Shown here: piece by piece, positions 1,192 through 29,677 of the stretch
How positions within the stretch are numbered: position 1 is the first letter of the stretch
Layout: every line of letters starts with the position of its first letter
Assembly (NCBI GenBank): GCA_035289485.1
Contig: DATDXA010000005.1
Location: 1-52,028, forward strand
Reading direction: 5' to 3'
DNA from: an archaeon
GTDB taxonomy: Archaea > Iainarchaeota > Iainarchaeia > Iainarchaeales > Iainarchaeaceae
DNA: 52,028 nt
Program-made: the position numbers and the translations under genes
The notes under the pieces: model-generated
Told to the model about the DNA's origin: nothing
Seen by the model: the letters and a program-made list of their open reading frames with translations, nothing else
Databases searched by the model: none

Positions 1192-1205
1192 TCGTCAATT
1201 GACGA
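1192..1205 (+). promoter_or_regulatory. perfect 14-nt palindrome TCGTCAATTGACGA abutting a TATA-like TTTAAAT (1210-1216); candidate operator
   Basis: Palindrome read directly; about 25 nt from TATA to ATG 1240; same motif at 3525-3539 and 29662-29677. Confidence 0.5.
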
Positions 1206-1239
1206 ATTGTTTAAATCTGTTTCTTAGCGCCATATATGC

Positions 1240-1770
1240 ATGAAACCTGCCGGTTTTTTCGGAGGGATTGTTCTAATAGCGGCAATCGCGCTGCTGCTTG
1301 CGCTCTCTGCCCTTTCTGCAAAAAACCCAGCACAATACGCGGACACGGAAAGTGAAATCATCCGGATGCAGCACACCGCCTTTGAACGAGCGGAGGCTGA
1401 AATCTTTCTTGACCATGCGATTGAATACGCAGTGATTGAATCAGCGTTTCCGCCTGTTGAATCCGAAAAAACCAAGGCGCTTGCAAATTGGAAAATTATC
1501 GAATCGCTAAGAATGCTCGGCATCGAAGGTTTTGTATGTGACGATAATTGGCCCGAAGATGCGCGCGAAGAAATATCTACGCAAAATCTTGGCGCAATCA
1601 CAAAAGCGCTGGTGACAAAAATCGGCCCACTTACAACAATTGAATACATTTTTTCAGGAGGAGAAGATGGCAAGCGACATATTTGCGCAAAAATCGAAAA
1701 TGGAAATTATTCGGTGACGCTTAGAGTTCCACGCGGCTACAGGGTTTTGATGGCGGTGCCTTCGCCATGA
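1240..1770 (+). CDS. hypothetical protein with hydrophobic N-terminus (possible pilin-like/pseudopilin)
   Basis: MKPAGFFGGIVLIAAIALLLALSA N-terminus; first gene of a run of overlapping small genes. Confidence 0.45.
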   Translation: MKPAGFFGGIVLIAAIALLLALSALSAKNPAQYADTESEIIRMQHTAFERAEAEIFLDHAIEYAVIESAFPPVESEKTKALANWKIIESLRMLGIEGFVCDDNWPEDAREEISTQNLGAITKALVTKIGPLTTIEYIFSGGEDGKRHICAKIENGNYSVTLRVPRGYRVLMAVPSP

Positions 1771-2078
1771 ATGGCACCGAGCTTATTTTCGCGCTGCTTG
1801 CAGTGGCGTCTTTTGCGGCATTTGCGGTTTTTTCTGAGCAGACGTTACTTGAAAAAGTAAAGGCGGCGGAAAGCCTTTTTGCGAGCAAAGCAGAGGCAAC
1901 AGAGTGCGCCGCACTTGCAAACCAGTATTATGCGAATGCAGGGGGCACACTTCAAAAGAATATTGATTGCGCGATTTCAGGTGGATTTGCGTTCTCAGGA
2001 ATTTCCAAATCCAGAGTAATGCCCGCCGCATTACAGAGTGCAAGCATGCTAATTGAGGTGGAGAGGCATTATGGATGA
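1767..2078 (+). CDS. hypothetical small protein with hydrophobic N-terminus (pilin-like?)
   Basis: ATGA overlap with upstream gene; MNGTELIFALLAVASFAAFAVF. Confidence 0.45.
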   Translation: MNGTELIFALLAVASFAAFAVFSEQTLLEKVKAAESLFASKAEATECAALANQYYANAGGTLQKNIDCAISGGFAFSGISKSRVMPAALQSASMLIEVERHYG

Positions 2079-2568
2079 GAATGAAGTAGGGGCAAGAGGC
2101 TATTTTTCTAAAATCAATTCACGCGGGATTATTTTCACCCTTGATTCATTCGTTGCGTGCGCAATCCTGCTATTTTCGCTTTTTCTAATATTTGCACAAA
2201 CAGGGGCACATGCACATGCCGCAGCAGAGCAGGCGCAAAATTCGGAAAAGGAATTTTTTGCCGCCGCACTTTCAGAGGCGATTGTGAAAAACCGTGATGA
2301 TGCAAATCCGTTTCGCGGCTCTGCATATTACAATGAAGAAAAGAAAAGGGTTGAAGCGAATGTACTGGACGAAGCGCTGCTTTTGCAAGTCTCGCGGCAG
2401 GATTTCGGGAAATACTCGCTTGAAGCGCTTTATGAAAGAGATGCTGATGGCACAAGGTATTTTTTCAACTCCGCGGCCGGAGAGTGCATTGCAGTGGAGA
2501 GATTTGTTGTCATGAAAAGGGTTATTGAGAGTAAAACTATAATCGGAGTTGTTGTTTGTGGAAAATAG
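2071..2568 (+). CDS. pilin-like protein, G/IIFTLD-type class III signal-like N-terminus
   Basis: SKINSRG-IIFTLDSFVACAILLFSLFLIF; same motif class as 32827 and 33345 genes; start chosen at ATG 2071, which overlaps the upstream stop. Confidence 0.55.
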   Translation: MDENEVGARGYFSKINSRGIIFTLDSFVACAILLFSLFLIFAQTGAHAHAAAEQAQNSEKEFFAAALSEAIVKNRDDANPFRGSAYYNEEKKRVEANVLDEALLLQVSRQDFGKYSLEALYERDADGTRYFFNSAAGECIAVERFVVMKRVIESKTIIGVVVCGK

Positions 2569-2905
2569 CGGGCTGCTTTCCATCGAGGCCGCCGCTTCGC
2601 TTGCAGTGCTCATAGTGATTGCGCTTTCCCTGCCTTCGCCGCAACCTAGTGGCGCGGAAAACCTTTTCACGATGCAAAAAATGGATGACATGCTCATTGT
2701 CTGGGCAAGAAACGGCACGGGAATGAATGAAATGGTGCAGGATGCCGAACTCGCTCTTGGAAAAGGAAATTTTGAAATTGAAATTTATGGAGAAGACCAT
2801 TTACCTGCGGAACAAAAAATGCAAAACGGCAAGCTAACGGTCCGCGAAATAAGGGTTTTCTCCCCAACAGGGCCGCGTGCAATCAGGTTATCAGTCGCTC
2901 AATGA
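2549..2905 (+). CDS. hypothetical small protein with hydrophobic N-terminus (pilin-like?)
   Basis: ENSGLLSIEAAASLAVLIVIALSL; start uncertain (TTG 2549 or GTG 2558). Confidence 0.4.
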   Translation: MLFVENSGLLSIEAAASLAVLIVIALSLPSPQPSGAENLFTMQKMDDMLIVWARNGTGMNEMVQDAELALGKGNFEIEIYGEDHLPAEQKMQNGKLTVREIRVFSPTGPRAIRLSVAQ

Positions 2906-3310
2906 AATTTTTCCGCCGGATTTGCGGATGTGCAAAGTGATTTTTTTCGTGAAAGTGCTTTTGGATAAGTTGCATGCAACATTTTCCGGAAGCGGGAATG
3001 AAACAATGCGCTCAGGGGCTGCATGAACTGAAATCCTGCACCCGCCGGAAGCATTTACAGAAAGCCCTGAGATTTCCCACTCGCCAAAAATATCTGAAGA
3101 CACGGATTGCGAAGAACTGTCCCCGAGAGAAGTTAGAAGCGCGGCTTTACTGGTTATGTTATTTGCAAACGCTTTGGCGTTCTGCGCATCAATTGCGGCG
3201 ATTGCAGAATCGTGAAGGCCTGAGAATGCGGAAACAGAAACCGAAAGGAACCCAAGGAGTGCGGCGAGCAGAATCATGAACTCAAGGCTTGCTTGGCCTT
3301 TTGGATTCAT
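2891..3310 (-). CDS. class III signal peptide pilin (QxSxE type)
   Basis: MNPKG-QASLEFMILLAALLGFL matches the archaeal class III signal motif QXSXEXXXL. Confidence 0.75.
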   Translation of the reverse strand: MNPKGQASLEFMILLAALLGFLSVSVSAFSGLHDSAIAAIDAQNAKAFANNITSKAALLTSLGDSSSQSVSSDIFGEWEISGLSVNASGGCRISVHAAPERIVSFPLPENVACNLSKSTFTKKITLHIRKSGGKISLSD

Positions 3311-3490
3311 CTAAATGTCCTCTATCTTGTCAAAAATTGAATCGGACTTTTTGGTGAAAACCTGCGCGCCTTTTTCAGCGGTTTTCTGCAGCTGCGAGAC
3401 CAGAAGCAAAACTATTGCAACAACCGCGGCAAGAATTATTATCAATTCGATTGAAATCTGAGCCCGTTCGCCTGAGATGCCCAAAACCAT
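3311..3490 (-). CDS. small class III signal peptide protein (minor pilin-like, about 59 aa)
   Basis: MVLGISGERA-QISIELIIILAAVVAIVLLLV; ATG 3490 lies about 25 nt from TATA 3513-3520. Confidence 0.7.
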   Translation of the reverse strand: MVLGISGERAQISIELIIILAAVVAIVLLLVSQLQKTAEKGAQVFTKKSDSIFDKIEDI

Positions 3491-3524
3491 GAGCAAAAAT
3501 GGGTAAAAACAATTTATAAATATT

Positions 3525-3539
3525 ACGTCGATTGACGAT
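3525..3539 (-). promoter_or_regulatory. near-palindrome ATCGTCAATCGACGT (minus-strand reading) abutting TATA TTTATAAA; candidate operator
   Basis: Same 9-nt half-site ATCGTCAAT and same position relative to TATA as at 1192 and 29662. Confidence 0.5.
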
Positions 3540-3671
3540 AACTAATTATATTAAGGGTTAGGAAGTATTGAATGTATTATACCGGTAAGGCCGCTATGGG
3601 CAGGGCGCGGAAAAAGCCCAAAGCTATGGAAGCTTTTCCACGATGAAGTTGATGCCACCCAAAATAAGATT

Positions 3672-3980
3672 ATGAATATTAGTCTCAAAGCCGGCGAAAA
3701 AAACATTTATGTGGCCGGCTCACCTAAACGCCAAAAACTTTTAAAACAAGAAGTGAAATATTCCGTAGCAGGAAGATATGCGGCACATCAAGTGGAAATC
3801 CCACAAGAGAAATGGCGAGAAATAATGGATGCCGCAGAAACAGTTGCAAAAGGAGCCAAGTTTTATTCCGGGGACATTCCGAAAAATGCAAGAAGTAAGC
3901 TCAGAGAATTGCTTGGGTCAAAAGCACAGGCGTTTTGGAAGGAATATTTGTATGCGCTTAAAGAAATTAGGGGGCTTTGA
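3672..3980 (+). CDS. hypothetical protein
   Basis: 102-aa ORF, no recognisable motif. Confidence 0.35.
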   Translation: MNISLKAGEKNIYVAGSPKRQKLLKQEVKYSVAGRYAAHQVEIPQEKWREIMDAAETVAKGAKFYSGDIPKNARSKLRELLGSKAQAFWKEYLYALKEIRGL

Positions 3981-4007
3981 GACCGCTAAGGCAGCTATTT
4001 ATAGTTT

Positions 4008-4637
4008 TTGGATTTAATTCACTGCATGAACGCGCGCGAACGAAATGACCTTATCATTAGCTGGCTTACTATCAGCTTCGCATTCGCATGGATACAGGTA
4101 AATGTGCTCACCTCCGGTGGCGTGATGGACCTTGTCGCTGCATTTGTGATAATGCTCGTTGCGGTGGGCGCGGGATTCATACTCCATGAACTCGCACACA
4201 AGTACGTTGCAATACATTACGGCGCGCACGCCGAATTTCGTATGTGGAGAGAAGGCCTAATTTTCGCGATAATACTCGCATTTACAATTGGAATAGTATT
4301 CGCCGCCCCCGGAGCGGTATATGTGATGGGAAGAAGCATAACAACAAGGCAAAATGGTATAATCTCCCTAGCAGGGCCGGTAACAAATCTTGCGATAGTT
4401 CTTGCGTTTGGAATGCTTTATGGACTGCTCAATCCTGCAGGCTTTCTGAAGGCATTGATTGCATATACAATGCAGATAAACTTCTTCCTTGCCGCATTCA
4501 ACATGCTGCCGATTTTTCCGCTAGACGGGAGCAAGGTATTTGCATGGAATAAGGGCATTTGGCTTGTTACAATAGCCATTGCGGCAGCCGGAGTGATTTT
4601 CTTTAATGATGTGCTTGCGTTGTTTTCAATGGCGTGA
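4008..4637 (+). CDS. site-2 protease family (M50) membrane metalloprotease
   Basis: HELAHKYV (HExxH) in a TM helix plus NMLPIFPLDGSKV (LDG motif), multi-pass membrane protein. Confidence 0.8.
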   Translation: MDLIHCMNARERNDLIISWLTISFAFAWIQVNVLTSGGVMDLVAAFVIMLVAVGAGFILHELAHKYVAIHYGAHAEFRMWREGLIFAIILAFTIGIVFAAPGAVYVMGRSITTRQNGIISLAGPVTNLAIVLAFGMLYGLLNPAGFLKALIAYTMQINFFLAAFNMLPIFPLDGSKVFAWNKGIWLVTIAIAAAGVIFFNDVLALFSMA

Positions 4638-4716
4638 TTGCACATTCCGAAAGCAAATTTATTGTGGAAATTAACACGGCGCAAAGTGGTTTAAGAACCT
4701 AAGTGCCAATACTTGC

Positions 4717-5442
4717 ATGAAATTTGCTTTGGCGATTGGCGCACTGGGATTGTTGCTGCTTTCAGGATGCACGCAGCAGGAGCAGAATGCGTGCGCGCAG
4801 ATTATTACACCGGCGGTTTCTCCGGACGGCACATGTAGAGAATACCCGACGCCTTGCGATGTCCCGGACGGATACACTGTTGTTGAAAAATGCGCAGCAT
4901 CGGCAAACCTTTGCGCAGGAATTGTATGTGAAGACAAGTGTGTGGGCTCGACCCTTTACACAAACGGCTTGTGCTCTAACGGAAAATGCAATTATAACCA
5001 GCAGTTTGACAATTCCGCATGCGTAGTACAGGAAGAAAATTTCCAGTTCGATGCAAACCTTGTCTTCTGCGACTACGATGCGATTTCAAAGAAATACGTG
5101 CTCTTCTACCAGATAAGAAACAGAACAGACAACATCCCGACTTATAGGTCCTCGATTTGGCTCAACGTGCCCGCATTAAATTATGGCAATGAGAGGACAA
5201 TACAGGCAAGTTACAAAAAGAATCAGATACTCTGGGAAAACCAGTCATACAGCTTCCTTGGGGAGAGATTCCGCGGGCAGGCCTGGGAAATACGAGACCA
5301 GAACATATTCCTGCCGCTTGACTTTGAGCTAATCTACTGTGAGCCCGAATTTTCGGATAATGGAGAATGCACTTCGCAAAATGGCGTACTTATAGCGCAG
5401 GGAAATACTGCGCAGCTTTGCACAAAGCCAGAATTTACATAA
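4717..5442 (+). CDS. secreted Cys-rich lipoprotein, unknown function
   Basis: MKFALAIGALGLLLLSGC lipobox-like signal; many Cys in the N-terminal third. Confidence 0.55.
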   Translation: MKFALAIGALGLLLLSGCTQQEQNACAQIITPAVSPDGTCREYPTPCDVPDGYTVVEKCAASANLCAGIVCEDKCVGSTLYTNGLCSNGKCNYNQQFDNSACVVQEENFQFDANLVFCDYDAISKKYVLFYQIRNRTDNIPTYRSSIWLNVPALNYGNERTIQASYKKNQILWENQSYSFLGERFRGQAWEIRDQNIFLPLDFELIYCEPEFSDNGECTSQNGVLIAQGNTAQLCTKPEFT

Positions 5443-5483
5443 GTGCGGTGAATGGAAGCAGATTATAGGTCAGCGAATACTAT

Positions 5484-7973
5484 TTATCTCACATAACTTG
5501 GCCTGAATGCCTGCGCAACTGTTGCCTTGAACGCATCGTAAGATTCCATTGTTTCCTTTGAAATAGAAGGCTGGACTTTTTTCATTGCCTCTTCAAAATT
5601 TGAAAGCTTGATTTCCGTTGGCTTGAAATTTGCCTCCTGCATAGCAATCAAGGCAGCCTCCCTAATCAGCCCTTCGATGTCTGCTCCGCTGTAGCCTTCG
5701 GTTTTTTCTGCCAAATCTGCGCCTGAAACATTCTTTGCAAGTGGAACGCCTTTTAGGTGTATTCCAAAAATAGATTTTCTAGATTCAATATCAGGAGCTG
5801 GAACTTTCACAATCTTGTCAATTCTCCCAGGCCTCATGAGCGCAGGGTCTATCAAATCAGGCCTATTGGTGGCGGCAATGAACACAACGCCCTTTAGCTC
5901 TTCGATTCCATCTAGCTCGGTGAGAAGCTGGTTTACCATGCGTTCTCCAACGCCAGAATCCATTGACATCCCCCGGCGCGCGGCTACGCTATCTATTTCA
6001 TCGAAGAAAACAATGACTGGAGAGACCTGCCTTGCCCTCTGGAAAACCTTGCGAATTCCCTTTTCACTTTCGCCAACCCACATGCTGATTAGCTGCGGGC
6101 CTTTTATGCTTATGAAATTTGCCTCGGATTCTGTTGCAACAGCCTTTGCAATTGCGGTCTTTCCGCATCCGGGTGGGCCGTAGAGCAAAATTCCGCGCGG
6201 TGGCTTTATCCCCATTTTCTGGAAGCTCTCGGGATTTTTGAGCGGCCACTCAACTGCCTGCTTTAGCTCCATCTTCACCTGTTCAAGGCCGCCGATATCG
6301 CCCCATTTGACATTTGGAATTTCAATTGCAACTTCCCTTAGCGCGGAGGGCTGCACATCCTTTAGCGCCTCCTGGAAATCCTCGCGTTTAACTTCGAGGG
6401 CTTCGAGAACCTCTGCAGGAATTGTTTCTTCCTCAAGATTTATTTTGGGAAGGTAGCGGCGCAGCGCCTTCATTGCGGATTCTTTTGTAAGGGCCTCAAG
6501 GTCGGCGCCCACAAATCCGTGCGTGATTCCCGCAAAATAATCCAAGGAAACCTCGTCAGAAAGCCTTTTTGTAGCCAATTCAGAAATCAGCGAATTTACT
6601 TTCAGGCTGGGATTTTCCTTTATTCTTCTAATGCCTAAATCTAAATCAAAATTGGCAATAAGCTTTTCTAAATCTTTGGAGTCGGCGTCCTTTGGAAGTT
6701 TTTTTTTGCAAAAATCTAAAAGTTTCTCAGTTAATTCATCACGTGAAACATTTTGTTTGGTTAAAATATCGGCAAATGTTTTGTTTTTCTCCGAATCTTT
6801 TGATTCTGAACCGTTTGAGTAAAGAGCCGTTAAAATACCCGCTTCTTGTTTGGTGAATCGAGTAAGCGGCATCCCCCTTGAATGTATCTGCAAAATATCG
6901 AGCCTCCCCTTCTTTGAAGGAACGCCGATTTCTATTTCGCGGTCAAATCTTCCTGGCCGGCGCAGTGCCTCATCAATGCTATTAATCCTGTTTGTGGCAC
7001 CGATCACAATTACCTGCCCGCGCGATTCCATGCCATCCATTGCTGAAAGTATCTGCGCAACAACTCGCCTCTCAACTTCGCCGACGACCTCGTCCCTTTT
7101 TGGGGCAATCGCATCAAGCTCGTCAAAGAAAATTATCGAAGGCGCGTTCTTCTCCGCATCCTTGAAAACCTCACGTATGCGCTCTTCTGCTTCGCCTACA
7201 AATTTGCTCATGATGCTTGGAGAACTGATTGAGATGAAATGCGCCTGCGTCTCGTTCGCAACCGCTTTTGCGAGAAGTGTTTTTCCGGTTCCCGGAGGGC
7301 CGTAGAGCAAAACCCCTTTTGGAGGATTTATTCCAAGGCGCCTGAAAATTTCCGGATGCCTCATCGGAAGCTCGATCATCTCGCGCACCTTTTGCACCTG
7401 CTCTTCAAGGCCGCCAATGTCCTCATAAGAAATTCGCGGGATTCCGCCGAGTGCGTCCTGCACCGGCTCTTCTTTGAGAATGAATTGCGTGAAATCGGTG
7501 ACCTTTACAATGCCGCGCGGATTTGTATCAATCACTTGGTAAATAAAACCAGAGCCAAAAACGCTGATGAGAACGCGATCTCCCTTATTGAGAGGCCTTC
7601 CTATAAAATTCTTTTTCAGTATCCTGTCATATCCGGAAGCAATTATGCGAACTTCCTGAGTGGGCGCGAGAACTACCCTTTTTGCTTCGGTGAATTCTGC
7701 CTTCTGCACATTCACTTTTTCCCCAAGCCCGACTCCCGCATTTCGCCTTATGAGATTGTCCATTCTGATTATGCCCTTGCCCTCATCTTCCTGGCGCGCC
7801 GGCCATATGACCGCCGCGGTTCTTTGTGTCCCTATGATTTCTACAATGTCACCTGAAGTTACGCCAAGATCCTCTTTTGTTTTGCGGTCAAGCGTGATGA
7901 TGTTTCTTCCAACATGCGAGGGATCAGGTTCTTCGACCCGCAGGGAAATCTGCCGATGCTTTACATCTGCCAT
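5484..7973 (-). CDS. cdc48: Cdc48/VCP-like AAA+ ATPase (two AAA domains) with about 90-100 aa insertion in D1
   Basis: Two Walker A ([16 protein letters not shown]), two Walker B ([15 protein letters not shown]), N-domain; start set at MADVKHRQ (ATG 7973), the hydrophobic 22-aa upstream extension rejected. Confidence 0.93.
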
Positions 7974-8048
7974 AAAAGAGGGGAACGCGGTAACGAATAA
8001 GAATATAACTAATTGCCAAGTGAGGATGGGAAATGGCAATAATGCACT

Positions 8049-8852
8049 TTATTGCAAGGAAAAGGCGATACCACCGTTTGGGAGCAGTGCAATTACATCA
8101 TCTATTGTGATTTGCGCATTTTTCCCAAGCTTTGAGCGGAAAATTCCAAGTAGTCTTTTCGCGCCCTCGCCTTTTGGCATATCGCCAAATGAGAGCCGCA
8201 TTGAAAAGTCCGCCTTTTTTTCAACCGTTTGCGGCGGCCCTGAAAAAAGCTCCAATGCGCCGTCGGTTTGCTTAAAGCCTATTGAGAGCGAAAGAGGCGT
8301 TTTCTTATACCACTCGCGCTCGCCATAAATCATGAATGCGCCGGTGCCAATTGATTCGCCTGTTGGGGCGCTCTTGCTCACCTGCTCTGGGCGCGCGGAG
8401 TACACATCAACTGAGGGGAGCTTTTGCTCCCAGGCTTTTGAAAAAACGGCGGCGAAAACAGCGGCCTGCGCAAGGGAATCTTTTCCCGGCTTGCGCCCTT
8501 CTGTTTTGAGGATTGTGTGTGGCGCGCCGTGAATATCCGCATGGAAATAAACATCGTTTTTGTCCATGAGCTTTTTTACAACAACCTCGTTGCTCTTGGC
8601 ATCGCGCCCCGCGACAACCAAAAAGCCCTCGCCTGTGAAAAACCAGTGGTACTTCTCAAACCATCTGCGCTCGCGCTTTTTTACGGCCTTTATCTCCTTG
8701 CCCTTTTTCGAGGCTTCGATTGCCATCTTGCGTGAAATTTCCTTTGTGCCCTTCTCAAGGCCGAGGAGTTTTTTCTTTGCCTTTTTGGAAAGAGCATAAT
8801 AGCTTTCGGCATTTTCGCGTATTCCTTTTGTGAAATCTATTTCAATGCGCAT
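8049..8852 (-). CDS. short NFACT-family protein (NFACT-R/DUF814-type, Rqc2/RqcH C-terminal half-like)
   Basis: WFEKYHWFFTGEGFLVVAGRDAKSNEVVVKKLMDKNDVYFHADIHGAPHTILK matches the DUF814 core; only 267 aa, no NFACT-N region. Confidence 0.7.
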   Translation of the reverse strand: MRIEIDFTKGIRENAESYYALSKKAKKKLLGLEKGTKEISRKMAIEASKKGKEIKAVKKRERRWFEKYHWFFTGEGFLVVAGRDAKSNEVVVKKLMDKNDVYFHADIHGAPHTILKTEGRKPGKDSLAQAAVFAAVFSKAWEQKLPSVDVYSARPEQVSKSAPTGESIGTGAFMIYGEREWYKKTPLSLSIGFKQTDGALELFSGPPQTVEKKADFSMRLSFGDMPKGEGAKRLLGIFRSKLGKNAQITIDDVIALLPNGGIAFSLQ

Positions 8853-9377
8853 TCAAAGCCCCCTTGATTTTCTTATGGCGTGAATTAGCGCGTCCGTTCT
8901 TGAATCGAGCTTGTAAAATGGCTCGGTTACATAAAATATCTGCCTATCTTTTACAAAATCCTGAATGCCTGAGAGGTTCTCGAAATATTTCTTCCCAACC
9001 CCCTTGTGATAGGATTCAATGTCCTTGTAGATGTGGCGCGCAAGAATGTTCCAGTTTCCAGAGCCAAGAATTCCTGAGAGAAAATAAAGATTGTCATCCT
9101 TTTTCACTTCATCGAGGAACTTTTTTAGAAAATCCTTGTCCGTGAGATCGGTCTGCAGAAGGGTTAGCACCTCAAGGCGGTAGTCGAACTTTCTAAAATC
9201 TACCTTCGGGCCATAACCTGTGAGAAGGCCTTCTTTTGCAAGGAAATCAAGTGAGGATTTTATCGTGGCCTTATGGTACCCCGTGAGCTTTTGAATATGG
9301 CGCACATTCGGAGAAACGCTCCCGTTTTTTAGCAGCGCAGTGAGAATATTTAGCCTAACCTCATCATCCATTTTCAT
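8853..9377 (-). CDS. winged-helix transcriptional regulator (unclassified)
   Basis: RLNILTALLKNGSVSPNVRHIQKLTGYHKATIKSSLDFLAKEGLL; abuts the NFACT gene start. Confidence 0.5.
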   Translation of the reverse strand: MKMDDEVRLNILTALLKNGSVSPNVRHIQKLTGYHKATIKSSLDFLAKEGLLTGYGPKVDFRKFDYRLEVLTLLQTDLTDKDFLKKFLDEVKKDDNLYFLSGILGSGNWNILARHIYKDIESYHKGVGKKYFENLSGIQDFVKDRQIFYVTEPFYKLDSRTDALIHAIRKSRGL

Positions 9378-9596: not shown

Positions 9597-9612
9597 GCTT
9601 CTCCTCAAAAAT

Positions 9613-11700
9613 TCAGTCTTTCTTCGCTTCTTTTTCAGGTTCCTTTGCACCCGCCTGCGTTTTCGCAGCGGCTCTTGCCTTCCACTCGTTCTTTGTTTCG
9701 CAGTCCATGTTAACGCACATCTCAAAGCGATAGCGCTGCCCTACGACCTTAATTTTTGGAGTTCCGCACTTATCGCATAAAGTGCCAAGCGCTTCAATTT
9801 TCCCTTTCTGTGGGAGCGGATATGTGTTAGTGCATTTTGGATAATTAGTACAGCCAAGAAATCTTTTCTTGTTTTTGCTTATCAGCATCCGAAGCTGCCC
9901 GCCTTCACACTTGCCGCAGGCCCCAACTATTGAATCGCCCCGTAGAGCTGTGCGCAGCTCCGAACCAATTGAATCCTTGTGCTTTATCATGCCCTCAAGG
10001 ATGCGCAAGAGCAGCTTGCGCGAGGCTTCAACAACTTCCTTTTTGGATTTTCTCCCCGCCGCGACCTTGTCCATTTCCTTTTCAAGAAATGCGGTCATCT
10101 CCGGCTTTACCGCGTCAACTTCGTGCTTCTCAAGTGAATCCACTACAGCGAATGCAATCTCGTTTGGCTCTAGTGCCTTGCTCCCTGAGATGTATTTTCT
10201 CGCATAAAGCTTCTGGATGATTGTGTGCCGCGTGCTTTTCGTCCCGATGCCGAGCTCTTCCATTAGCTTTAGAAGGGTTGATTCGCTATAGCGCGTGGGC
10301 GGCTGGGTTTCTTTTTCAAGCATATCAAGTTTTTCGAGCCGCACTTTCTCGCCCTCTGAGAGCGGCGGGAGAATTACTTCTGAAATCTCGGAGTAGGGGT
10401 AAACCGCTTTCCAGCCGGGTTCTACGATTTTCTGCCCGTGCGCAACAAAGGGCTCAGTTCCAAGCATAATGTCAACCGCCTGATTTTCCGTGATTGCATC
10501 ATCGCAGAGCGTTGCAAGGAACCTTCGCACAATCAGCTCATATATTTTCCAGTCGCGGTCCCCGAGCTTTTCTTTGGGGGCGGCAGTTACAGGATAAATC
10601 GGCGGGTGGTCCTTGGTTTCCTTTTTTCCCCTCGAAGGCGAAAGTGTTTTTTTGGCGAGCAAAAATTCCGCGTCCTTGCGAAAGTCACTGACCTTTGAAA
10701 CTTCGCCAAGCACCTCACGCAAATTCAATGTCTCTGAATATACTGTGTTGTCTGTGCGCGGATATGAAGTGTATCCCATCTGGTAGAGGCGCTCGGCTAT
10801 TTCCATTGCCTGCCCTGCGGAAAAACCGATTGTTGTTGCCTGCCGCAAAAAATCGGTTGTGTTGAAAGGAGTCGGCCTTTTGAGAATTCTTTTCGAGCTC
10901 TTGATTGCTTTCACTACTCCGAATTCCTGCTTTTTGAGAAACGCCGCTTCGGCTTCGGTCTTTTCCCAGAATTTGCCCTTCTTGTGCTCGGCCTGAAATT
11001 TTTTGGAATTCTTCTCAAAAAGCGCCAGCAGCTCCCAGTAGCTTTTTTTTATGAATGCGAGGCGCTCTTTTTCCCTTGAAACTATTATGCGCAAGGTCGG
11101 GCTTTGCACCCTTCCGACACTTAGGTAATCTTTCCCAAGCTTACCTGAAACAAGAGAGAGAAAGCGCGTGAGAACCGCGCCCCAGATGAGATCGATTTCG
11201 CGGCGCGAATCAGCTGAATCCGCAAAATTGTAATCAACTGCCGAGAGCTTTGAAAATGCGTCTGAAATATCCTTTTTTGTAATTGCCGAGAAGTATGCGC
11301 GCTTCGCTGCGATTTTTGGGTTTATGGATTTTATATAATTGAGAGCCTCTACTCCGATGCTCTCCCCTTCTCTGTCGGCATCTGTTGCAAGAATTACTTC
11401 GTCCGCTGTTTTGGCGGCAGTTTTGAGCGCGGAAATTATCGCGGCTTCGGTGCCCACATAATCAATCTCGGCATCAACCAGCTTTTTGAGATCTGTCCCT
11501 ACCCAGTGGCTGTATTTTTTTGGAAACTCGACATCTGAAATATGGCCGCGCAGCGGGATTACCATATAATCCTCATTGCCGATTTTGAACGAAAAAACCT
11601 GCGCGGAGCCAAGAGAAGTTGCTCGCACATCCTTGCCCGCAAGAAGCGAGGCTATGTTCTGCCCAGCAATTGATTTTTCGGCGATTACAAGCTTAAGCAT
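9613..11700 (-). CDS. topA: DNA topoisomerase I (type IA) with C-terminal Zn ribbons
   Basis: Toprim start MLKLVIAEKSIAG, DADREGE motif, YPRTD active-site Tyr region, C-terminal CxxC...CxxC ribbons. Confidence 0.9.
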   Translation of the reverse strand: MLKLVIAEKSIAGQNIASLLAGKDVRATSLGSAQVFSFKIGNEDYMVIPLRGHISDVEFPKKYSHWVGTDLKKLVDAEIDYVGTEAAIISALKTAAKTADEVILATDADREGESIGVEALNYIKSINPKIAAKRAYFSAITKKDISDAFSKLSAVDYNFADSADSRREIDLIWGAVLTRFLSLVSGKLGKDYLSVGRVQSPTLRIIVSREKERLAFIKKSYWELLALFEKNSKKFQAEHKKGKFWEKTEAEAAFLKKQEFGVVKAIKSSKRILKRPTPFNTTDFLRQATTIGFSAGQAMEIAERLYQMGYTSYPRTDNTVYSETLNLREVLGEVSKVSDFRKDAEFLLAKKTLSPSRGKKETKDHPPIYPVTAAPKEKLGDRDWKIYELIVRRFLATLCDDAITENQAVDIMLGTEPFVAHGQKIVEPGWKAVYPYSEISEVILPPLSEGEKVRLEKLDMLEKETQPPTRYSESTLLKLMEELGIGTKSTRHTIIQKLYARKYISGSKALEPNEIAFAVVDSLEKHEVDAVKPEMTAFLEKEMDKVAAGRKSKKEVVEASRKLLLRILEGMIKHKDSIGSELRTALRGDSIVGACGKCEGGQLRMLISKNKKRFLGCTNYPKCTNTYPLPQKGKIEALGTLCDKCGTPKIKVVGQRYRFEMCVNMDCETKNEWKARAAAKTQAGAKEPEKEAKKD

Positions 11701-11799: not shown

Positions 11800-12324
11800 T
11801 CACTCAAGCGTCTTCTGAAGCGAGAACGCGGGCAGAGCCTTGGACTTTTTAACTTCCGAAATAACAACAAGAGTTTTTATGTCAAGCACGCCATCAAGTG
11901 AACCGAGGCGCTCGACGAACTTCTCTGCCGAATCAAGGTCCGGGACAACGAGCTTTAGGAAAATATTGTACTCGCCAAGCACCTGATAGAGCTCAATTAC
12001 ATAATCGAGTTCCTTTAGTTTCTTTATCACGTCGCGGTTCTTTGAAAGCTCTGAGCGTATCTGCACAAAAACAGGGTTTTCATAACCCAGTGCCTTGAGA
12101 TTGAGGTCCGCGCTAATCGCATTGATTATCCCGCGCCTCTTGAGGCGCTCAACCCTTTTTTTAATCGCAACATCAGTTAGCTTCACTTCATTTGCAATGG
12201 TGCTAAAAGAAGCCCTTCCGTCCTCCAGAAGAAGGCCCAAAATCTTGTGATCAATCTTATCCAGAACTTCCAAAAATAAAACCCCAAAAAGAAACTTTTC
12301 TTCCCCTAAACGGTTTTCTAACAC
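11800..12324 (-). CDS. Lrp/AsnC-family transcriptional regulator
   Basis: LDKIDHKILGLLLEDGRASFSTIANEVKLTDVAIKKRVERLKRRGII plus RAM-like C-terminal half. Confidence 0.85.
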   Translation of the reverse strand: MLENRLGEEKFLFGVLFLEVLDKIDHKILGLLLEDGRASFSTIANEVKLTDVAIKKRVERLKRRGIINAISADLNLKALGYENPVFVQIRSELSKNRDVIKKLKELDYVIELYQVLGEYNIFLKLVVPDLDSAEKFVERLGSLDGVLDIKTLVVISEVKKSKALPAFSLQKTLE

Positions 12325-17073: not shown

Positions 17074-17078
17074 AAGGC

Positions 17079-18369: not shown

Positions 18370-18576
18370 TCACGCCTTTGCAAGATTGCCTTTGCCTTGG
18401 ATTGCCCTGAGCATATCAAGGGCCGTCCTTTCGGCATCGAGAATTTCTATCTCAACAGGCTTATTCTTCTTGTTATAATGAGTGATTATGTTGCCTGACT
18501 GCTCCGCAAAATCAGGCTTTTGCCTGCTAAGCTCGATTATGAGTATGTCCGTTTCTTTGTCATATTTATATTTCAT
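18370..18576 (-). CDS. DUF2283-like small protein (putative antitoxin)
   Basis: MKYKYDKETDILIIELS...KPVEIEILDA pattern; overlaps the upstream DUF4258-like gene by 11 nt. Confidence 0.65.
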   Translation of the reverse strand: MKYKYDKETDILIIELSRQKPDFAEQSGNIITHYNKKNKPVEIEILDAERTALDMLRAIQGKGNLAKA

Positions 18577-18802
18577 ATCTTCCCACCTTGGCTTTGTATG
18601 CCGTGATTACTATAATATCATTCCCCTTTTCCTCGTATATAACCCTTAGTACATATCCGTTGAGGCGCCTGTGCGCAATCTTTCTGCCGTAATTTCCCGC
18701 AGTTATAATTTCAGGTTCCGAAACGCATTCTTCCACCATTAAGGCGCTCAGGCGGTATTTTACCAGCCTTTCATGCGCATGCGGAGTAATGATTATTGGC
18801 AT
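18566..18802 (-). CDS. DUF4258-like small protein (putative toxin)
   Basis: MPIIITPHAHERLVKYRLS...VLRVIYEEKGNDIIVITAY; start set at ATG 18802, the longer ORF extension rejected. Confidence 0.6.
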   Translation of the reverse strand: MPIIITPHAHERLVKYRLSALMVEECVSEPEIITAGNYGRKIAHRRLNGYVLRVIYEEKGNDIIVITAYKAKVGRYEI

Positions 18803-19071
18803 CAAAAAATAGGCAAAAGAAAGGCGTAAGAGCTTTTGCAGGGTTCGGTGCCGGTGCGGGAAACGAATATTAAAGGCAGGAGAGAAATAGCTATATGGAA
18901 AAAAGTGGTGAGAATGAAGACCTTTTCCTACAGCTCGTGAAAGGGCTTGAAGACATACGAATGGGCAGAATAAAACTGTGGAAGCCAAAGGCTGCTGATT
19001 GAATCTTAGCCATTAGCTTGTGAAACGCCCACAAAACTGTTTTTATTGCTTCGCGAGCCTAAATTTAACCT

Positions 19072-22869: not shown

Positions 22870-22873
22870 TTGC

Positions 22874-24022: not shown

Positions 24023-24025
24023 AAA

Positions 24026-25128: not shown

Positions 25129-25150
25129 TTGTAAAAAAGGGAGGAAAAAC

Positions 25151-25567: not shown

Positions 25568-25589
25568 AATTCGGTTTTAAATATAAATT

Positions 25590-25631
25590 GGCACGGCAAA
25601 TCGCCGTGCCGAAACTATTTTTTTATTTTTT
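25590..25631 (+). terminator. 8-bp GC hairpin plus T-tract after pilin A
   Basis: GGCACGGC aaatc GCCGTGCC (25590-25610) followed by TTTTTTTATTTTTT. Confidence 0.6.
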
Positions 25632-25697
25632 AACCGAACCAAATTTTTTCCCGTTTAATTCAAAAGCTTTAAATACTCCGCCCCCCTAAATAATCGC

Positions 25698-26090
25698 ATG
25701 AATAAGGGACAGGGAGCACTCGAATACCTATTGCTTATAGGCGGAGCAATAGTCGTCGCGGTCGTAGTCGTGACACTACTACTCAACCTGGGAAGCACAG
25801 GAGGGGCAAACGCAGGAAGCTCAAGCATGGGGGCTATTTGCGCACAATACGCATCGACTGCGGGCAATGCAACTAAGACTTGCAGCGACGTTTCATCTGG
25901 AGCTGGTCAGTCAGCATACATGTGGAATAATACCACAAAGCAGTGCTGGATATGCGGCGGCACGTATTCTGCGTGCACGGCAACAAAGGACCCACTGAAC
26001 GCAACAGTTCCGGGAAATTGCTGCCTGAATCCACCAGGATGCACATTAAACGATGCGGATCCGGTACAGGCTTACGTACAGATTAACTAA
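25698..26090 (+). CDS. class III signal peptide pilin, paralogue B
   Basis: MNKG-QGALEYLLLIGGAIVVAVVVV; 5' 125 nt nearly identical to paralogue A, C-terminus divergent and Cys-rich. Confidence 0.8.
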   Translation: MNKGQGALEYLLLIGGAIVVAVVVVTLLLNLGSTGGANAGSSSMGAICAQYASTAGNATKTCSDVSSGAGQSAYMWNNTTKQCWICGGTYSACTATKDPLNATVPGNCCLNPPGCTLNDADPVQAYVQIN

Positions 26091-26198
26091 ACAATTACAC
26101 CAAAGAAAAAGCGTGACAAATGCCGTGCCTTATTTTATTTTTTCATTTAAACACCAACAAAGAATAAATACTACCAAGCCCTAATATTGGCGGTAAAT

Positions 26199-26369
26199 AT
26201 GAATGAACGCGCGCAGGTTTCGGTGGAATACCTTCTAACCATTATGTTTGCGGTACTGCTTGTGATAGCGGTTACCGTGATTGCATTCAACATTTCGGTG
26301 GTTGCCGACAGGGCGCAGCTAAAGGTTGTGCAGAACCGCGACTCCGTGATTTCAAGTTTGATGGGGTAA
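26199..26369 (+). CDS. small class III signal peptide protein (56 aa)
   Basis: MNERA-QVSVEYLLTIMFAVLLVIAV; resembles the 3311-3490 product. Confidence 0.7.
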   Translation: MNERAQVSVEYLLTIMFAVLLVIAVTVIAFNISVVADRAQLKVVQNRDSVISSLMG

Positions 26370-26383
26370 TTGCGAAGCCAAGC

Positions 26384-26690
26384 CCGTCCGCAGGACGGTC
26401 TGTCGCTCTTCCGAGCCGTTCGGCAAAGCATAGCTTTGCTGAACCCAGCAGAACATAGTTCTGCCGGGAAACTCGGAGTGCAAAACCGCGACAGCGTAAT
26501 TTCTAGCCTGATTAGTTAAATGTGAAGCCAAGCCTATCGAGGTCTCAAGACCGACCTGGCAGAGCAAGCTCTGCAAGGCCTCCCAAAGCAGTGGCTTTGG
26601 AAGGAGATAGGGTGCTCCCTCCCGACGAGCAGGTCGGGCGCACCGGCACCTAACCCTGCGTGAGTTTTTAACCCCGCCATGGCGCAAGCT
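26384..26690. repeat. GC-rich intergenic block densely packed with short hairpins (REP-like palindromic units)
   Basis: At least 8 hairpins read by eye, e.g. CCGTCC-gca-GGACGG, GCAAAGC-ata-GCTTTGC, GCAGAAC-ata-GTTCTGC, GCAGAGC-aa-GCTCTGC, CCAAAGC-agtg-GCTTTGG, CCCGAC-gagcag-GTCGGG. Confidence 0.7.
26478..26519 (+). repeat. in-frame duplicate of the last 13 codons plus stop of the 26199-26369 gene
   Basis: VQNRDSVISSLIS* versus VQNRDSVISSLMG*; 57-nt units at 26328-26384 and 26478-26534, about 80% identical. Confidence 0.8.
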
Positions 26691-26695
26691 ATTTT

Positions 26696-27118
26696 ATGGC
26701 GCAGAGATTCTACCTTGACACTGCAATTTGGAGGGATTACTTTGAGGACAGGCGGGATGGAATTAGGCCACTTGGAGAATTTGCATTTCAGTTTCTGAGA
26801 AATTGCGATAAGCAAGGATGCATGATTTTGTATTCAGAATTAGTTGTCCATGAGCTAAAGCGCGACTATTCTGACGAGAAGATAAAACAGGTTTTTTCTC
26901 CATTCAACCATTTTCTCGAAATAGTGTCTATTTCCGATGCACAATATTTGGAAGCCAAAAAATTGGCGAATATAAAAAGGGACTCTCACGAATCGGATAT
27001 TTTGCATGCTATTCTTGCAAGGGATAACGGTGCAGTTTTGATTACAAGAGATTTCCATTTTGAAACGCTCAGGGACATTGCAGAAATTAAAATGCCAGAA
27101 GAAGTTACTTTTGACTGA
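26696..27118 (+). CDS. PIN-domain protein (VapC-like)
   Basis: FYLDTAIW... (N-terminal Asp), E in SELVVHEL, DILHAILA, LITRDFHF (C-terminal Asp) fit the PIN acidic residue pattern. Confidence 0.75.
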   Translation: MAQRFYLDTAIWRDYFEDRRDGIRPLGEFAFQFLRNCDKQGCMILYSELVVHELKRDYSDEKIKQVFSPFNHFLEIVSISDAQYLEAKKLANIKRDSHESDILHAILARDNGAVLITRDFHFETLRDIAEIKMPEEVTFD

Positions 27119-27389
27119 ACCGTTTTTCTAAAATGCCCATGAATTCTTTCCCTGCTTCCTCGCGCAATTTATAAAATTCATCGTCAGTCTTTGCCTTTCC
27201 TTTCCCCTTGAAAATGCCCCTTGCGGCAAAGAGCGCATCCCAAGCGACCTTTTTTTTCCTTTCATCGTCCAGCCTTTGCAGCTTTTCCCGGATTGACTCC
27301 CGAACAAATTCGGTTTTGGTGGAATAGTTGAAATCCTTCATATCCCTTTCAATCTGCCGGACAAAAGCGGATTCAATCTTTATGCTCAT
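27105..27389 (-). CDS. ribbon-helix-helix (CopG-like) protein
   Basis: MSIKIESAFVRQIERDMKDFNYSTKTEFVRESIREKL is an RHH-like strand-helix-helix; converges on and overlaps the PIN gene by 14 nt. Confidence 0.65.
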   Translation of the reverse strand: MSIKIESAFVRQIERDMKDFNYSTKTEFVRESIREKLQRLDDERKKKVAWDALFAARGIFKGKGKAKTDDEFYKLREEAGKEFMGILEKRFSQK

Positions 27390-27518
27390 TATTTCCATCA
27401 TATTACTTAGTAATACCAAGTAAACCTTAAAAATAAGTGCGTTCTGCTGCCCGGATAGAATCAGGATAATCAGATTGGTTAAAATACAGCGGGCTGTTTT
27501 ATAGTTAGGCTGAATCCA

Positions 27519-28703
27519 ATGATACCATTTGTACAGGCGTATTTTCTGATTACACTAGTTGCACTCATTGTTGCCACTTACACCGACCTAAAGGAGAGGC
27601 TTGTTAGCAACGGGCTCACATACGGCCTTATTGCGGCGGCTCTTTTGCTCAAGGGAGCGGAATCGTATTTTGCCGCAAATTTGTGGCCGCTTCAGGAATC
27701 ATTGCTTGCAGGCGCAATAGCATTTGCCGCATCATATGCGCTCTACAGGATTGGTGTTTGGGCAGGCGGGGATGTGAAGCTCGTGACCGCGATTGCGTTT
27801 GCAAACCCGCTCAATTACGGGGTGCTTTCTGGAATTTTCCCGCTTCCGGCATGGGCATCCGGCACCATCGCGCTCCCGATTTTTTCTGTCGCGCTCATCT
27901 TGGCTTCCGCATTCATGGTTTTTCCGATTGGAATTGCAATGAGCATTGGCGCCGCGCTCAAGCACAGAAAAATATTAGCGCAGACATTTGATGCTGTGCG
28001 CAAAAAGGCGCTTGCGATTGCGGCGGCTGCGGCACTTGTGGCAGGGAGCAGGGCACTTTTGCACTGGATTTTTGCGCAATATGCGGGAGCAATTGGAAGT
28101 TTGGCATATATTCCGGGGACAGTCGAATTCATAACACTCATAATCTTAATCGCCTCTGCATTCGCCCCTAAAAGAATCGCAGGCTACGCAGCCGCTGCGC
28201 TTGGAATTATAGGAATACTGCTAGAACCTACGGAATTCATTGTTTTGGGAATTTCGGTTGCCGCCCCTTTGCTTGCGGTGTATGCGCTGTGGAAAATGTA
28301 TGCTGAGAGCAGGGAAGCGGCGTTTAAGGAAACTATTCCGGTAGAAAAACTCGAGGAAGGGATGATTCCGGACAAATACATTGTTGAAAAGGAGGGCGCG
28401 ATAGGATTCGTGGATGCACCTTCGATAAAAACCGTTATAAAGCAGTTAATCAATAATAGAATGGAAAAAACCCTCGAGGACTTCAAAGTGGAGGGGAACG
28501 TGCTCGCAAGCCCGAGGGATGCTGGCGGAATATCAAGGGAGGCTGTGGAGAAATTAAGGAAAATGGCAGGCACGGGAAAATCGCCAAAAAGCATAACGGT
28601 CAGAAAAACCATGGCGTTTGTTCCGGCAATACTTGCCGCGTATATTGCGCTGCAGCTTACAGGGGATTTTGTATGGAACATCTTATTCAAAATAGCGTCA
28701 TGA
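27519..28703 (+). CDS. A24-family prepilin/preflagellin peptidase (PibD/EppA/FlaK-like) with large C-terminal extension
   Basis: Catalytic Asp contexts ATYTDLKERLV and WAGGDVKLV in a polytopic membrane protein; 394 aa. Confidence 0.8.
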   Translation: MIPFVQAYFLITLVALIVATYTDLKERLVSNGLTYGLIAAALLLKGAESYFAANLWPLQESLLAGAIAFAASYALYRIGVWAGGDVKLVTAIAFANPLNYGVLSGIFPLPAWASGTIALPIFSVALILASAFMVFPIGIAMSIGAALKHRKILAQTFDAVRKKALAIAAAAALVAGSRALLHWIFAQYAGAIGSLAYIPGTVEFITLIILIASAFAPKRIAGYAAAALGIIGILLEPTEFIVLGISVAAPLLAVYALWKMYAESREAAFKETIPVEKLEEGMIPDKYIVEKEGAIGFVDAPSIKTVIKQLINNRMEKTLEDFKVEGNVLASPRDAGGISREAVEKLRKMAGTGKSPKSITVRKTMAFVPAILAAYIALQLTGDFVWNILFKIAS

Positions 28704-29224
28704 AAAATATGCGCGGAGCGCAGAAAGGCCAGGCAACTATAGAGTTCCTGCTTATCCTGTTGCTTGCGGTTGGATATATCATGGCGGTGGTCCAGCCAAA
28801 TGCCGATTATGCATCTAACTCGATTGCGGATGTGGCAAGCATCGGAAAGCTCAGTGTTTCTGCGCAAAAATTATCGAATGCTGTGCAATATGTTTCCCTT
28901 TCTGGCAAGGGAACGAGGCAGACAGTTGAAATTGTTGTCCCTGCAGACGGGAAATTGGAATGTGATACTGGATCTTCCCCGGATTCGGTCAAGTTCTCAT
29001 ACACGCTCAAATCAGGTAGGGGAATCGCGGCATGCGAAGGGGATATTGATGTCGATGGGAAAATGTGCACAAGGCTCATTTCAGTTGGCACAGATTTTAC
29101 TTGTGATTTTTTACCTGTAACTTCGCCACTGACGACCAGTGCAGGACCCGGAATTTACAGCACTGCAATTGAAAAGGACTCCGGCACAGGTGCTGTGGAA
29201 GCTACGTTCACAGTGGTGCAATGA
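28700..29224 (+). CDS. class III signal peptide pilin
   Basis: MKNMRGAQKG-QATIEFLLILLLAVGYI; ATGA overlap with the peptidase stop. Confidence 0.75.
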   Translation: MKNMRGAQKGQATIEFLLILLLAVGYIMAVVQPNADYASNSIADVASIGKLSVSAQKLSNAVQYVSLSGKGTRQTVEIVVPADGKLECDTGSSPDSVKFSYTLKSGRGIAACEGDIDVDGKMCTRLISVGTDFTCDFLPVTSPLTTSAGPGIYSTAIEKDSGTGAVEATFTVVQ

Positions 29225-29637
29225 AGGGGCAGGCAAGCATAGAGCTCATAATCATAATCACCCTAGCGTTGGCCCTTAGCATAGGGGTGCTTGGAAAATT
29301 CTCGGGCGTGCAGGAAGGGATATTCACATCGGCATCAGCTAGGCAGCAGCTTATTACGGAAATGGAAAAGCTTGACACGCATTATGATGTGCGCGGAATA
29401 GCGACGGCAGAATGCGCGGCAAGTACGAGCGGCAATATCCGGGTGAATGTCACAATAAAGCCAGACCCCAAAATCATTGGAACATCACCAAACACTGACG
29501 ATACCAAAATAACGCCTAAAGTAAGGGCCGCAATATGCTCAACCAGAAATCTGGGCACAAAAACTGTTTGCATAGCATACAACGACCCCTCAAGGCTTGA
29601 TTGCGGCCAGACATGCGCCGGCCAGAGTTGCACATGA
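29221..29637 (+). CDS. class III signal peptide pilin
   Basis: MKG-QASIELIIIITLALALSIGVL; ATGA overlap with the upstream gene. Confidence 0.75.
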   Translation: MKGQASIELIIIITLALALSIGVLGKFSGVQEGIFTSASARQQLITEMEKLDTHYDVRGIATAECAASTSGNIRVNVTIKPDPKIIGTSPNTDDTKITPKVRAAICSTRNLGTKTVCIAYNDPSRLDCGQTCAGQSCT

Positions 29638-29661
29638 ACATAAAACAGCCACAAACTATAT

Positions 29662-29677
29662 ATCGTCAATCAACGTA
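29662..29677 (+). promoter_or_regulatory. ATCGTCAATCAACGTA motif abutting TATA TTTTTAAT (29678-29685); candidate operator
   Basis: Third copy of the ATCGTCAAT half-site, same spacing to TATA, about 27 nt from TATA to ATG 29709. Confidence 0.45.

Follow-up and report, generated by a model that had tools for sequence, protein, structure and literature searches.

What reads a palindrome that stands directly in front of the TATA box at three separate promoters, and what do the genes behind these promoters have in common? This question is raised by a 52,028-nucleotide (nt) stretch of Iainarchaeia/Diapherotrites (DPANN) DNA, in the following called the window; these 52 kb and about 10 kb of further sequence are what was examined of this genome itself. 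Identical contigs were found in groundwater and soil metagenomes, and the window contains the archaeal marker genes Cdc48, RFC and Nre, class III signal-peptide pilins and a peptidase with A24 and Arc_PepC domains. As outlined below, the palindrome is very probably a real operator, judged from its sequence and conservation, and the protein encoded at 517-1191 (plus strand), which combines an ArsR-type winged helix-turn-helix (wHTH) with one transmembrane helix and a Cys-rich C-terminal domain, is the best candidate for the factor that would bind it.

Three copies of a palindrome at pilin and OB-fold/TctA promoters

Site 1 (ATCGTCAATTGACGAA) occupies 1191-1206 on the plus strand, 3 nt before the TATA box TTTAAAT (1210-1216, plus strand) of a pilin-like operon A-D and 49 nt before its ATG at 1240. 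Within this site TCGTCAATTGACGA (1192-1205) forms a perfect palindrome of 14 bp, and base 1191 is at the same time the final base of the TAA stop codon of the open reading frame (ORF) 517-1191. Site 2 (ATCGTCAATCGACGTA in minus-strand reading, 3539-3524, minus strand) lies 3 nt before the TATA box TTTATAAA (3520-3513, minus strand) of the pilin operon P1-P2, whose ATG (3490) is 49 nt downstream. Site 3 (ATCGTCAATCAACGTA, 29662-29677, plus strand) directly abuts (0 nt) the TATA box TTTTTAAT (29678-29685, plus strand) of an OB-fold/TctA operon with its ATG (29709) 47 nt downstream. With the A of ATCG and that of the ATG as reference points the distances are thus 49, 49 and 47 nt for sites 1, 2 and 3, and the three sites have an identical orientation relative to the downstream gene. 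All three TATA boxes begin at -30 relative to the ATG, as is usual in the window: among the 33 likely window promoters surveyed the box most often stands 27-32 nt before the start codon, suggesting that the window mRNAs are mostly leaderless.

The exact 9-mer ATCGTCAAT occurs three times on both strands of the 52 kb versus 0.34 copies expected, and none of 100 dinucleotide-preserving shuffles of the window gave at least three copies. A scan of the window allowing up to three mismatches to the 14-mer revealed no additional convincing site, and the element was absent from all other surveyed window promoters, those of the ATPase (21112) and both T2SSF platform genes of the pilus machinery, of the pilin gene at 25698, of the prepilin peptidase gene (27519) and of the second T2SSE ATPase gene (44051) included. 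This second T2SSE-type secretion ATPase (44051-45628, minus strand) is encoded distant from the main pilus locus. An Rfam scan of the window returned a tRNA as its sole match.

In a preliminary description of this DNA the three sites, their common 9-mer without any further copy and their uniform orientation towards the downstream genes had already been located correctly, and the gene content that it gave around the sites agrees with our domain scans and ORF reading. Its statement that the sites lie 1-4 nt upstream of the TATA box holds for the close upstream placement, while the gaps of the 16-bp element are 3, 3 and 0 nt; the distance of 25-27 nt that it gave between TATA box and start codon had to be corrected, the boxes beginning at -30 and ending about 23 nt from the ATG.

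The four genes behind site 1 (A-D; 1240-1770, 1767-2078, 2071-2568 and 2558-2905, together 1240-2905 on the plus strand) look like pilin genes. Their N-termini resemble class III signal peptides in that a hydrophobic helix comes after [KR]G or SG (for example MKPAG-FFGG and SRG-IIFTLD); the proteins have no Pfam match, and the label pilin-like comes from these N-termini as read by eye. The operon converges with that behind site 2 (2891-3490, minus strand), which encodes P1 (3311-3490), a precursor of 59 amino acids (aa), and P2 (2891-3310) with 139 residues. Both carry the class III signal peptide of archaeal type IV pilins and match PF04021 (E = 4.8e-5 and 1.8e-4), at or just under the 23.7-bit cut-off; the A24 and Arc_PepC domains of the window peptidase belong to the same picture. 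P1 is unusually short, its mature form of about 48 aa being essentially the N-terminal helix alone. No other protein of the cassette that the two operons form is nearly as conserved as P1 (55-86% identity across the class), which probably serves as major subunit of a minimal filament.

Site 3 is followed by the genes for a membrane-anchored OB-fold protein (29709-30065, plus strand) and a TctA/DUF112 permease (30058-31230, plus strand), encoded just 3' of the prepilin peptidase. Further downstream lie JAB (31268-31639, plus strand) and His_Phos_1 (31636-32337, plus strand), which may be transcribed apart from the OB-fold/TctA pair because a TATA-like box stands upstream of JAB.

Conservation of the element in related loci

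Conservation of the element was analyzed in 80 loci from different species (1.09 Mb), which were fetched via an alignment of 24 homologues of the candidate regulator. A scan with ATCGTCAATYRACG gave 8 exact and 32 one-mismatch matches compared with 0.4 one-mismatch matches expected from shuffles that kept mononucleotide composition alone. Nearly all matches fall at the two cassette promoters, and the clade consensus of the 16-bp palindrome reads TTCGTCAAT-YR-ACGWA. A frequency table of 64 distinct promoter-type sites gave the consensus T-TCGTCAAT-YR-ACG-W-A-a-T-a-TTT-a-t-A; these sites were chosen by up to two core mismatches, so that the core is circular and only the conserved flanks and the TATA box are independent information.

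The BLAST-based synteny of these loci can be written as u156 - regulator - [A B C D -> <- P2 P1] - M50 - (lipoprotein-like) - Cdc48, with cassette genes detected in 19-45 of the 80 loci and the sites at both outward-facing ends of the cassette. In six loci (L014, L030, L032, L035, L049 and L051) the cassette is turned round with respect to the regulator and M50 genes, and each of the two sites has stayed at its promoter; in L061, the complete AR10 genome, the cassette stands 8 kb from the regulator gene and the site has moved along. The element therefore tracks the promoters and not the 3' end of the regulator gene.

The breakpoints of the 2.3-kb cassette inversion coincide with the two operator copies, which are mutually inverted repeats (window 1191-3539), and the inversions look like evolutionary recombination between the operators. 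This geometry, together with the occurrence of both orientations among related genomes, would also suit recombination sites that invert the cassette in the manner of phase variation, their promoter location then being incidental. Since both promoters lie inside the repeats, such an inversion would leave expression unchanged; site 3 stands by itself, 26 kb away, and has been conserved at a promoter of its own, and no recombinase was found among the window proteins scanned. The contigs from four DNA runs showed a single cassette orientation and no inversion joints, with the reservation that contigs drop rare variants. The inversions between species more plausibly arose as a by-product of short inverted repeats, and we consider a function as inversion sites very improbable.

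In most relatives the regulator-distal site is flanked by two promoters, that of the cassette on one side and on the other the divergent one of an M50 gene, which in the window encodes a membrane metalloprotease of the site-2-protease (S2P) family with HELAH and LDG motifs (4026-4637, plus strand). In close and distant clades alike, 15-17 nt separate the palindrome from the M50 TATA box. In the window about 490 bp (3540-4025, with a 102-codon ORF at 3672-3980) part site 2 from M50; no homologue of this ORF was detected in any of the 80 related loci, and the stretch is, at the level of sequence, a species-specific insertion that would uncouple M50 from the operator. The M50 promoters of the relatives carry a strongly conserved core, GGTTTTTATTGSTTTTGA, beyond the TATA box, and a similar sequence, CTATTTATAGTTTTTGGA, is found at -28 from the start of the window M50 gene.

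Other promoter-type sites precede A-type and P1-type pilins (L105, L113, L125 and L131). In L030 (RIFCSPLOWO2_01_FULL_58_19) a third perfect operator stands before the gene of an 874-residue secreted protein with a C-terminal membrane anchor (6588-9259, minus strand), and this anchored surface protein with its operator also occurs in L123 and L148. It follows that the regulon recruits lineage-specific surface proteins. In L132 a site precedes a lipoprotein-like Cys-rich protein.

Site 3 was followed by a motif-first scan of metagenome contigs, which resulted in 78 matches, mostly due to chance (about 60 had been estimated beforehand), with about 15 showing promoter architecture. In three of these loci, which are on independent contigs (L093, L158 and L160), the motif precedes OB-fold orthologues with 34-53% identity over the aligned regions, the T of TCG lying 44-45 nt upstream of the ATG, and the order prepilin peptidase (PibD) - two small genes - [motif] - OB - TctA is kept. 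L158 furthermore retains the JAB and His-phosphatase genes, and the contigs of L160 and L093 end within TctA. Alignment of the four site-3 promoters unveiled an invariant TCGTCAATC-R-ACGTATTTTTA between diverged flanks. A further locus, L110, was not counted as a site-3 orthologue, its OB match being weak and an M50 gene adjacent.

The orthologous promoters of all three operons hence carry the element, with the proteins encoded there 35-60% identical, which is the outcome of the check in relatives that the preliminary description had proposed. Its idea of an operator for a dimeric factor that co-regulates filament and membrane genes gains strong support from this conservation, from the cassette inversions and from the fixed spacing to the TATA box.

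In distant clades the centres of the elements upstream of P1 are altered (TTCGTTTTTTGCCGAA, TTCGTCTTTTGCCGAA and TTCGCTTTTCAACGAA) and the TTCG/CGAA ends with their 8-nt spacing are kept; the lineage-wide core is TTCG-N8-CGAA. The pattern NNCG-N8-CGNN with at least 6 of 8 end matches is present in 41 of the 43 upstream regions of P1 orthologues compared with 3.6% of shuffled regions. The gap between operator and TATA box is 12 nt in nearly all distant-clade cases, at P1-type as well as A-type promoters, and 3 nt in the clade of the window. This rigid clade-specific spacing argues that a bound protein would work stereospecifically with the preinitiation complex, and the two spacings with unchanged half-sites offer a natural experiment on how the regulator communicates with the TATA-binding protein (TBP) and transcription factor B (TFB).

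With this, the remaining ways of explaining the element away can be judged. A hairpin terminator of the upstream gene, acting at the RNA level, would fit site 1, which directly follows a stop codon, can fold into a hairpin of -8 kcal/mol and has a T-rich stretch downstream. The predicted hairpins of the three sites are, however, inconsistent (-8, -5.4 and -0.2 kcal/mol; z-scores -2.0, -1.6 and +0.8), the central YR positions vary without preserved base pairing, and site 2 as well as the M50-side sites of the relatives have no co-directional upstream gene; the terminator was rejected on account of the three inconsistent folds. Chance is excluded by the enrichment in the window, the scan of the 80 loci and the P1 upstream counts versus shuffles, and duplication by the unrelated flanks, leaving this group of explanations with next to no probability.

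A further explanation would place the element in the core promoter itself, as an extended or inverted TFB recognition element (BRE) that is read by an alternative TFB (or TBP) for surface-structure genes. The BRE proper is short and asymmetric and determines the direction of the promoter. The proximal half ACGWAAT indeed stands at the BRE position, directly upstream of the TATA box, in the clade of the window. The element itself, as a palindrome of 16 bp, differs from an archaeal BRE in both length and symmetry; in distant clades the TATA box is 12 nt away, beyond TFB contacts, and that of the divergent M50 promoter 15-17 nt, and no TFB gene was found among the approximately 50 window proteins scanned. 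Although TFIIB homologues are the regulators most frequent in archaeal type IV pilus loci (PMC4858521), which speaks for such a promoter class, we regard it as improbable.

Two gene groups in or beside the main pilus locus are likely toxin-antitoxin genes. One is a PIN-domain gene (26696-27118, plus strand) beside an opposite-strand ORF with a sub-threshold Rv0623-like (PSK_trans_fac) match (27105-27419, minus strand), which may not form a pair; the other is a DUF4258 gene with a small upstream ORF (18370-18988, minus strand).

The membrane-anchored ArsR-type protein as candidate regulator

The homologues of the candidate regulator bear Diapherotrites or Candidatus Iainarchaeum names. Its DNA-binding domain matches PF01022 (HTH_5) with 40.3 bits versus a gathering cut-off of 22 (E = 2.8e-10), and a profile search of PDB sequences returned the ArsR-family entries 2p4w (1e-8) and 7r22 (4.5e-7). 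In the AlphaFold model the wHTH comprises residues ~8-85, with a predicted local distance difference test score (pLDDT) of ~90-96 over residues 20-80; the chain continues with a long hydrophobic helix (90-113) and, after a disordered linker (117-154), ends in a compact Cys-rich domain (155-224). Foldseek aligned the model with HlyU, CzrA and NolR at target-normalised TM-scores of 0.70-0.77 (E ~1e-4), and the closest solved structures are the ArsR/SmtB members Phr, HlyU, CzrA and NolR. By sequence and predicted fold the domain is a bona fide ArsR-type wHTH. The combination of a wHTH with a hydrophobic helix, here residues 90-113 and kept in the 24 aligned homologues, is that by which transmembrane transcription regulators are defined (PMC10269533); the membrane localisation is predicted. 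Asn, Ser and Gly residues of this helix are nearly invariant. The ectodomain (155-224) was modelled confidently (pLDDT > 90) and contains the invariant cysteines C185, C194 and C216, a nearly invariant C159 and a conserved DGKPDC-W motif. The whole-chain Foldseek search matched no known fold to the ectodomain, the wHTH domain having dominated the search.

The core of the recognition helix, PT[VI]KQH, is near-invariant across clades, with PSxKQH, PAAKEH or SSMKQQ in a few loci. Where the operator centre of a clade has changed, L replaces A/T as the residue after KQH in most loci, though not in all; several loci with the window-type operator also have L at this position, and the correlation is thus partial. 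The regulator gene adjoins the cassette in most loci that keep the cassette, and across clades no other DNA-binding gene stands immediately beside the cassette. In one metagenome-assembled genome (MEGAHIT-group-1.438) two regulator paralogues were found (L069 and L073), with operator sites near the cassette-adjacent L073 copy only.

Directly upstream of the regulator gene in 45 of the 80 loci lies u156, which encodes a small membrane protein with a His-rich N-terminus (window 186-503, plus strand) and is probably co-transcribed with the regulator. The start of u156 is probably at 186, because the ATG at window 156 falls inside a further conserved element, CTAA(C/G)nAAAATGAAA(g/c)GnTTAAAAAG (window 140-175), that stands directly upstream of the u156-regulator operon. 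Where u156 is absent, the CTAA-type element precedes the regulator gene itself. The exact pattern was found at that position once each in 16 of the 80 related loci (L001 at 9631-9645, L011, L013, L016, L018, L020, L024, L028, L029, L031, L033, L054, L055, L059, L060 and L068), with near-variants in several others, and it may serve as operator for a further factor, one controlling expression of the regulator.

Several observations weigh against the assignment of the palindrome to this protein. The promoter of the regulator operon contains no TTCG-N8-CGAA and hence no autoregulatory signature; what stands there is the CTAA-type element. Synteny across the lineage extends over the entire neighbourhood of about 12 kb (Cdc48, NFACT, topoisomerase and, in two loci, Lrp), by which the argument from adjacency is weakened, and in L017, L052 and L071 the regulator is kept and the neighbouring cassette lost. 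Among the RNA runs searched for the pilin locus none contains it; it was found in DNA metagenomes (groundwater and soil) alone. Autoregulation had been considered separately and was rejected, the pattern matches (4 of 45) being either fortuitous GC-rich matches within coding sequence or artefacts caused by the truncation of loci.

These points leave room for a genuine operator that is read by another factor, such as the Lrp/AsnC protein (11800-12324), a TrmB-family protein whose gene lies shortly before the window, or a protein encoded elsewhere, the ArsR-like protein having a different target. Archaeal Lrp-type dimers bind imperfect inverted repeats of 13-17 bp with an AT-rich centre (PMC6396743), a shape that TTCG-N8-CGAA fits, and an Lrp gene belongs to the same syntenic block; moreover, the regional synteny does not allow adjacency to single out the ArsR-like gene, whose own promoter bears a different conserved motif. 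On the other hand, the TrmB neighbour is kept in only 1 of the 80 loci, and the Lrp gene is 8.5 kb from the cassette, with close homologues in two loci only and as part of the general synteny. The ArsR-like gene alone flanks the cassette across clades, and its near-invariant recognition helix parallels the invariant half-sites. Another factor is therefore unlikely, though it deserves serious consideration, and the reading in its entirety, comprising an operator of a lineage-specific factor, a small regulon and the adjacent ArsR-type protein as that factor, is moderately probable.

Proposed regulon and comparison with known systems

The motif would accordingly serve a transcription factor specific to the Iainarchaeia/Diapherotrites lineage, with the 16-bp palindrome covering the BRE position at about -49 to -34 from the start codon of apparently leaderless mRNAs. 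The putative regulon would comprise four minor-pilin-like genes, the very short and highly conserved pilin together with the second pilin, and the membrane OB-fold protein with the TctA/DUF112 permease. In relatives the divergently transcribed M50 protease and, here and there, a large surface protein would join it. The assembly ATPase of the pilus, its platform genes and the remaining window pilins would not belong to it. ArsR/SmtB members are dimers that bind inverted repeats, and the 16-bp palindrome with its invariant TTCG/CGAA ends is compatible with dimer binding, in which one recognition helix would contact each TTCG/CGAA half-site. As a one-component transmembrane regulator the protein would couple an external cue to the supply of pilus subunits.

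Regulation would potentially proceed by activation through recruitment of TBP/TFB, which we mildly prefer to repression. Activation is favoured because the distant-clade operators leave the BRE free and the M50 TATA box is 15-17 nt off, so that TBP/TFB would not be occluded; characterised archaeal activators bind upstream of a free BRE. Against this stands the clade of the window itself, where the proximal half-site overlaps the BRE position and competition with TFB is possible; in characterised archaeal systems such an overlap more often means repression.

A more far-reaching reading takes the operator as the output end of a pathway of regulated intramembrane proteolysis in DPANN archaea. Its parts would be the tethered wHTH protein, with the conserved Asn, Ser and Gly of its transmembrane helix and its disordered linker next to the membrane, the co-transcribed partner (186-503) and the M50 site-2 protease, whose promoter has the palindrome in common in most relatives: the ectodomain would sense a cue (for example host contact or redox), the DNA-binding domain would be released or activated, and pilus subunits, OB-fold protein and TctA-type permease would be switched on, similar to SREBP or to TcpP/TcpH/YaeL. 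The OB-fold/TctA pair might then represent a pilus-linked uptake module for DNA or another host-derived substrate in a host-dependent organism. We consider this pathway doubtful at present.

Gene regulation in DPANN archaea is almost uncharted, the genomes being small, the regulators few and a genetic system lacking, and DPANN pili are thought to mediate attachment to the host. This analysis yields an operator defined by sequence, a small set of target operons and one foremost candidate for the regulator, which is conserved throughout the class Iainarchaeia. The proposed regulon links pilus subunits, and not the assembly machinery, to the OB-fold/TctA operon and, in relatives, to an S2P protease, which hints at the role of the uncharacterised OB-fold/TctA genes.

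The literature search returned no paper that contains the palindrome or describes a DPANN pilin operator. In the literature searched, operator and regulon appear to be without prior description, while the kind of system is, by analogy, already known. The DNA-binding domain resembles ArsR/SmtB proteins (Phr of Pyrococcus furiosus, 2p4w; HlyU, CzrA and NolR) in fold and sequence; classic members are, however, soluble repressors that sense metals, redox state or stress, whereas the window protein is predicted to be membrane-anchored with a presumed extracellular sensor and is more likely an activator. ToxR/ToxS and TcpP/TcpH are membrane regulators with a partner protein and control by regulated intramembrane proteolysis, YaeL is the S2P protease that goes with TcpP/TcpH, and both ToxR and TcpP use a wHTH of the OmpR type. 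In common with these the locus has a single-pass DNA-binding protein, a gene for a small membrane partner, a nearby M50/S2P gene and putative pilin targets; in contrast, the wHTH is of the ArsR type, and partner and protease are known here from their genes alone. Bacterial transmembrane transcription regulators have been surveyed (PMC10269533), and a survey of archaeal type IV pilus loci reported uncharacterised nearby regulators (pfam12840 and membrane-bound families), with DPANN and operators not covered (PMC4858521).

One archaeal activator of a filament operon is EarA, known from Methanococcus maripaludis and related euryarchaea, whose target is four copies of the 6-bp sequence TACATA upstream of the BRE (as cited in PMC6396743). 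The proposed regulator would share with EarA the role of a filament-operon activator, and its Pfam match to EarA-like (E = 0.0016) is weak, below the gathering threshold; EarA is soluble and its TACATA copies are not palindromic, unlike the membrane-anchored regulator and palindromic operator proposed here.

The closest analogue is, in our view, the ArnR/ArnR1 system of Sulfolobus acidocaldarius, whose membrane-bound proteins activate pilus and archaellum promoters via inverted repeats upstream of the BRE; both bind TCGAC-N5-GTCGA upstream of the BRE of the archaellin promoter, and ArnR also bound promoter regions of pilus genes in which no such repeats were found (PMC6396743). Shared with ArnR would be a membrane-bound one-component HTH regulator, genes of type IV pilus-type filaments and an inverted-repeat operator, binding being presumed in our case. 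The relation is one of functional analogy only: the Pfam matches of the regulator include no HAMP or other ArnR-related family, and ArnR combines its HTH with a HAMP-like domain and two C-terminal transmembrane helices, whereas the non-homologous window protein has one helix and a Cys-rich ectodomain. ArnR furthermore needs two 15-bp boxes at -43 to -84, compared with a single 16-bp palindrome abutting BRE/TATA at the window promoters, and it targets the archaellum operon, whereas the putative targets here are pilin subunits and the OB-fold/TctA operon of a DPANN lineage.

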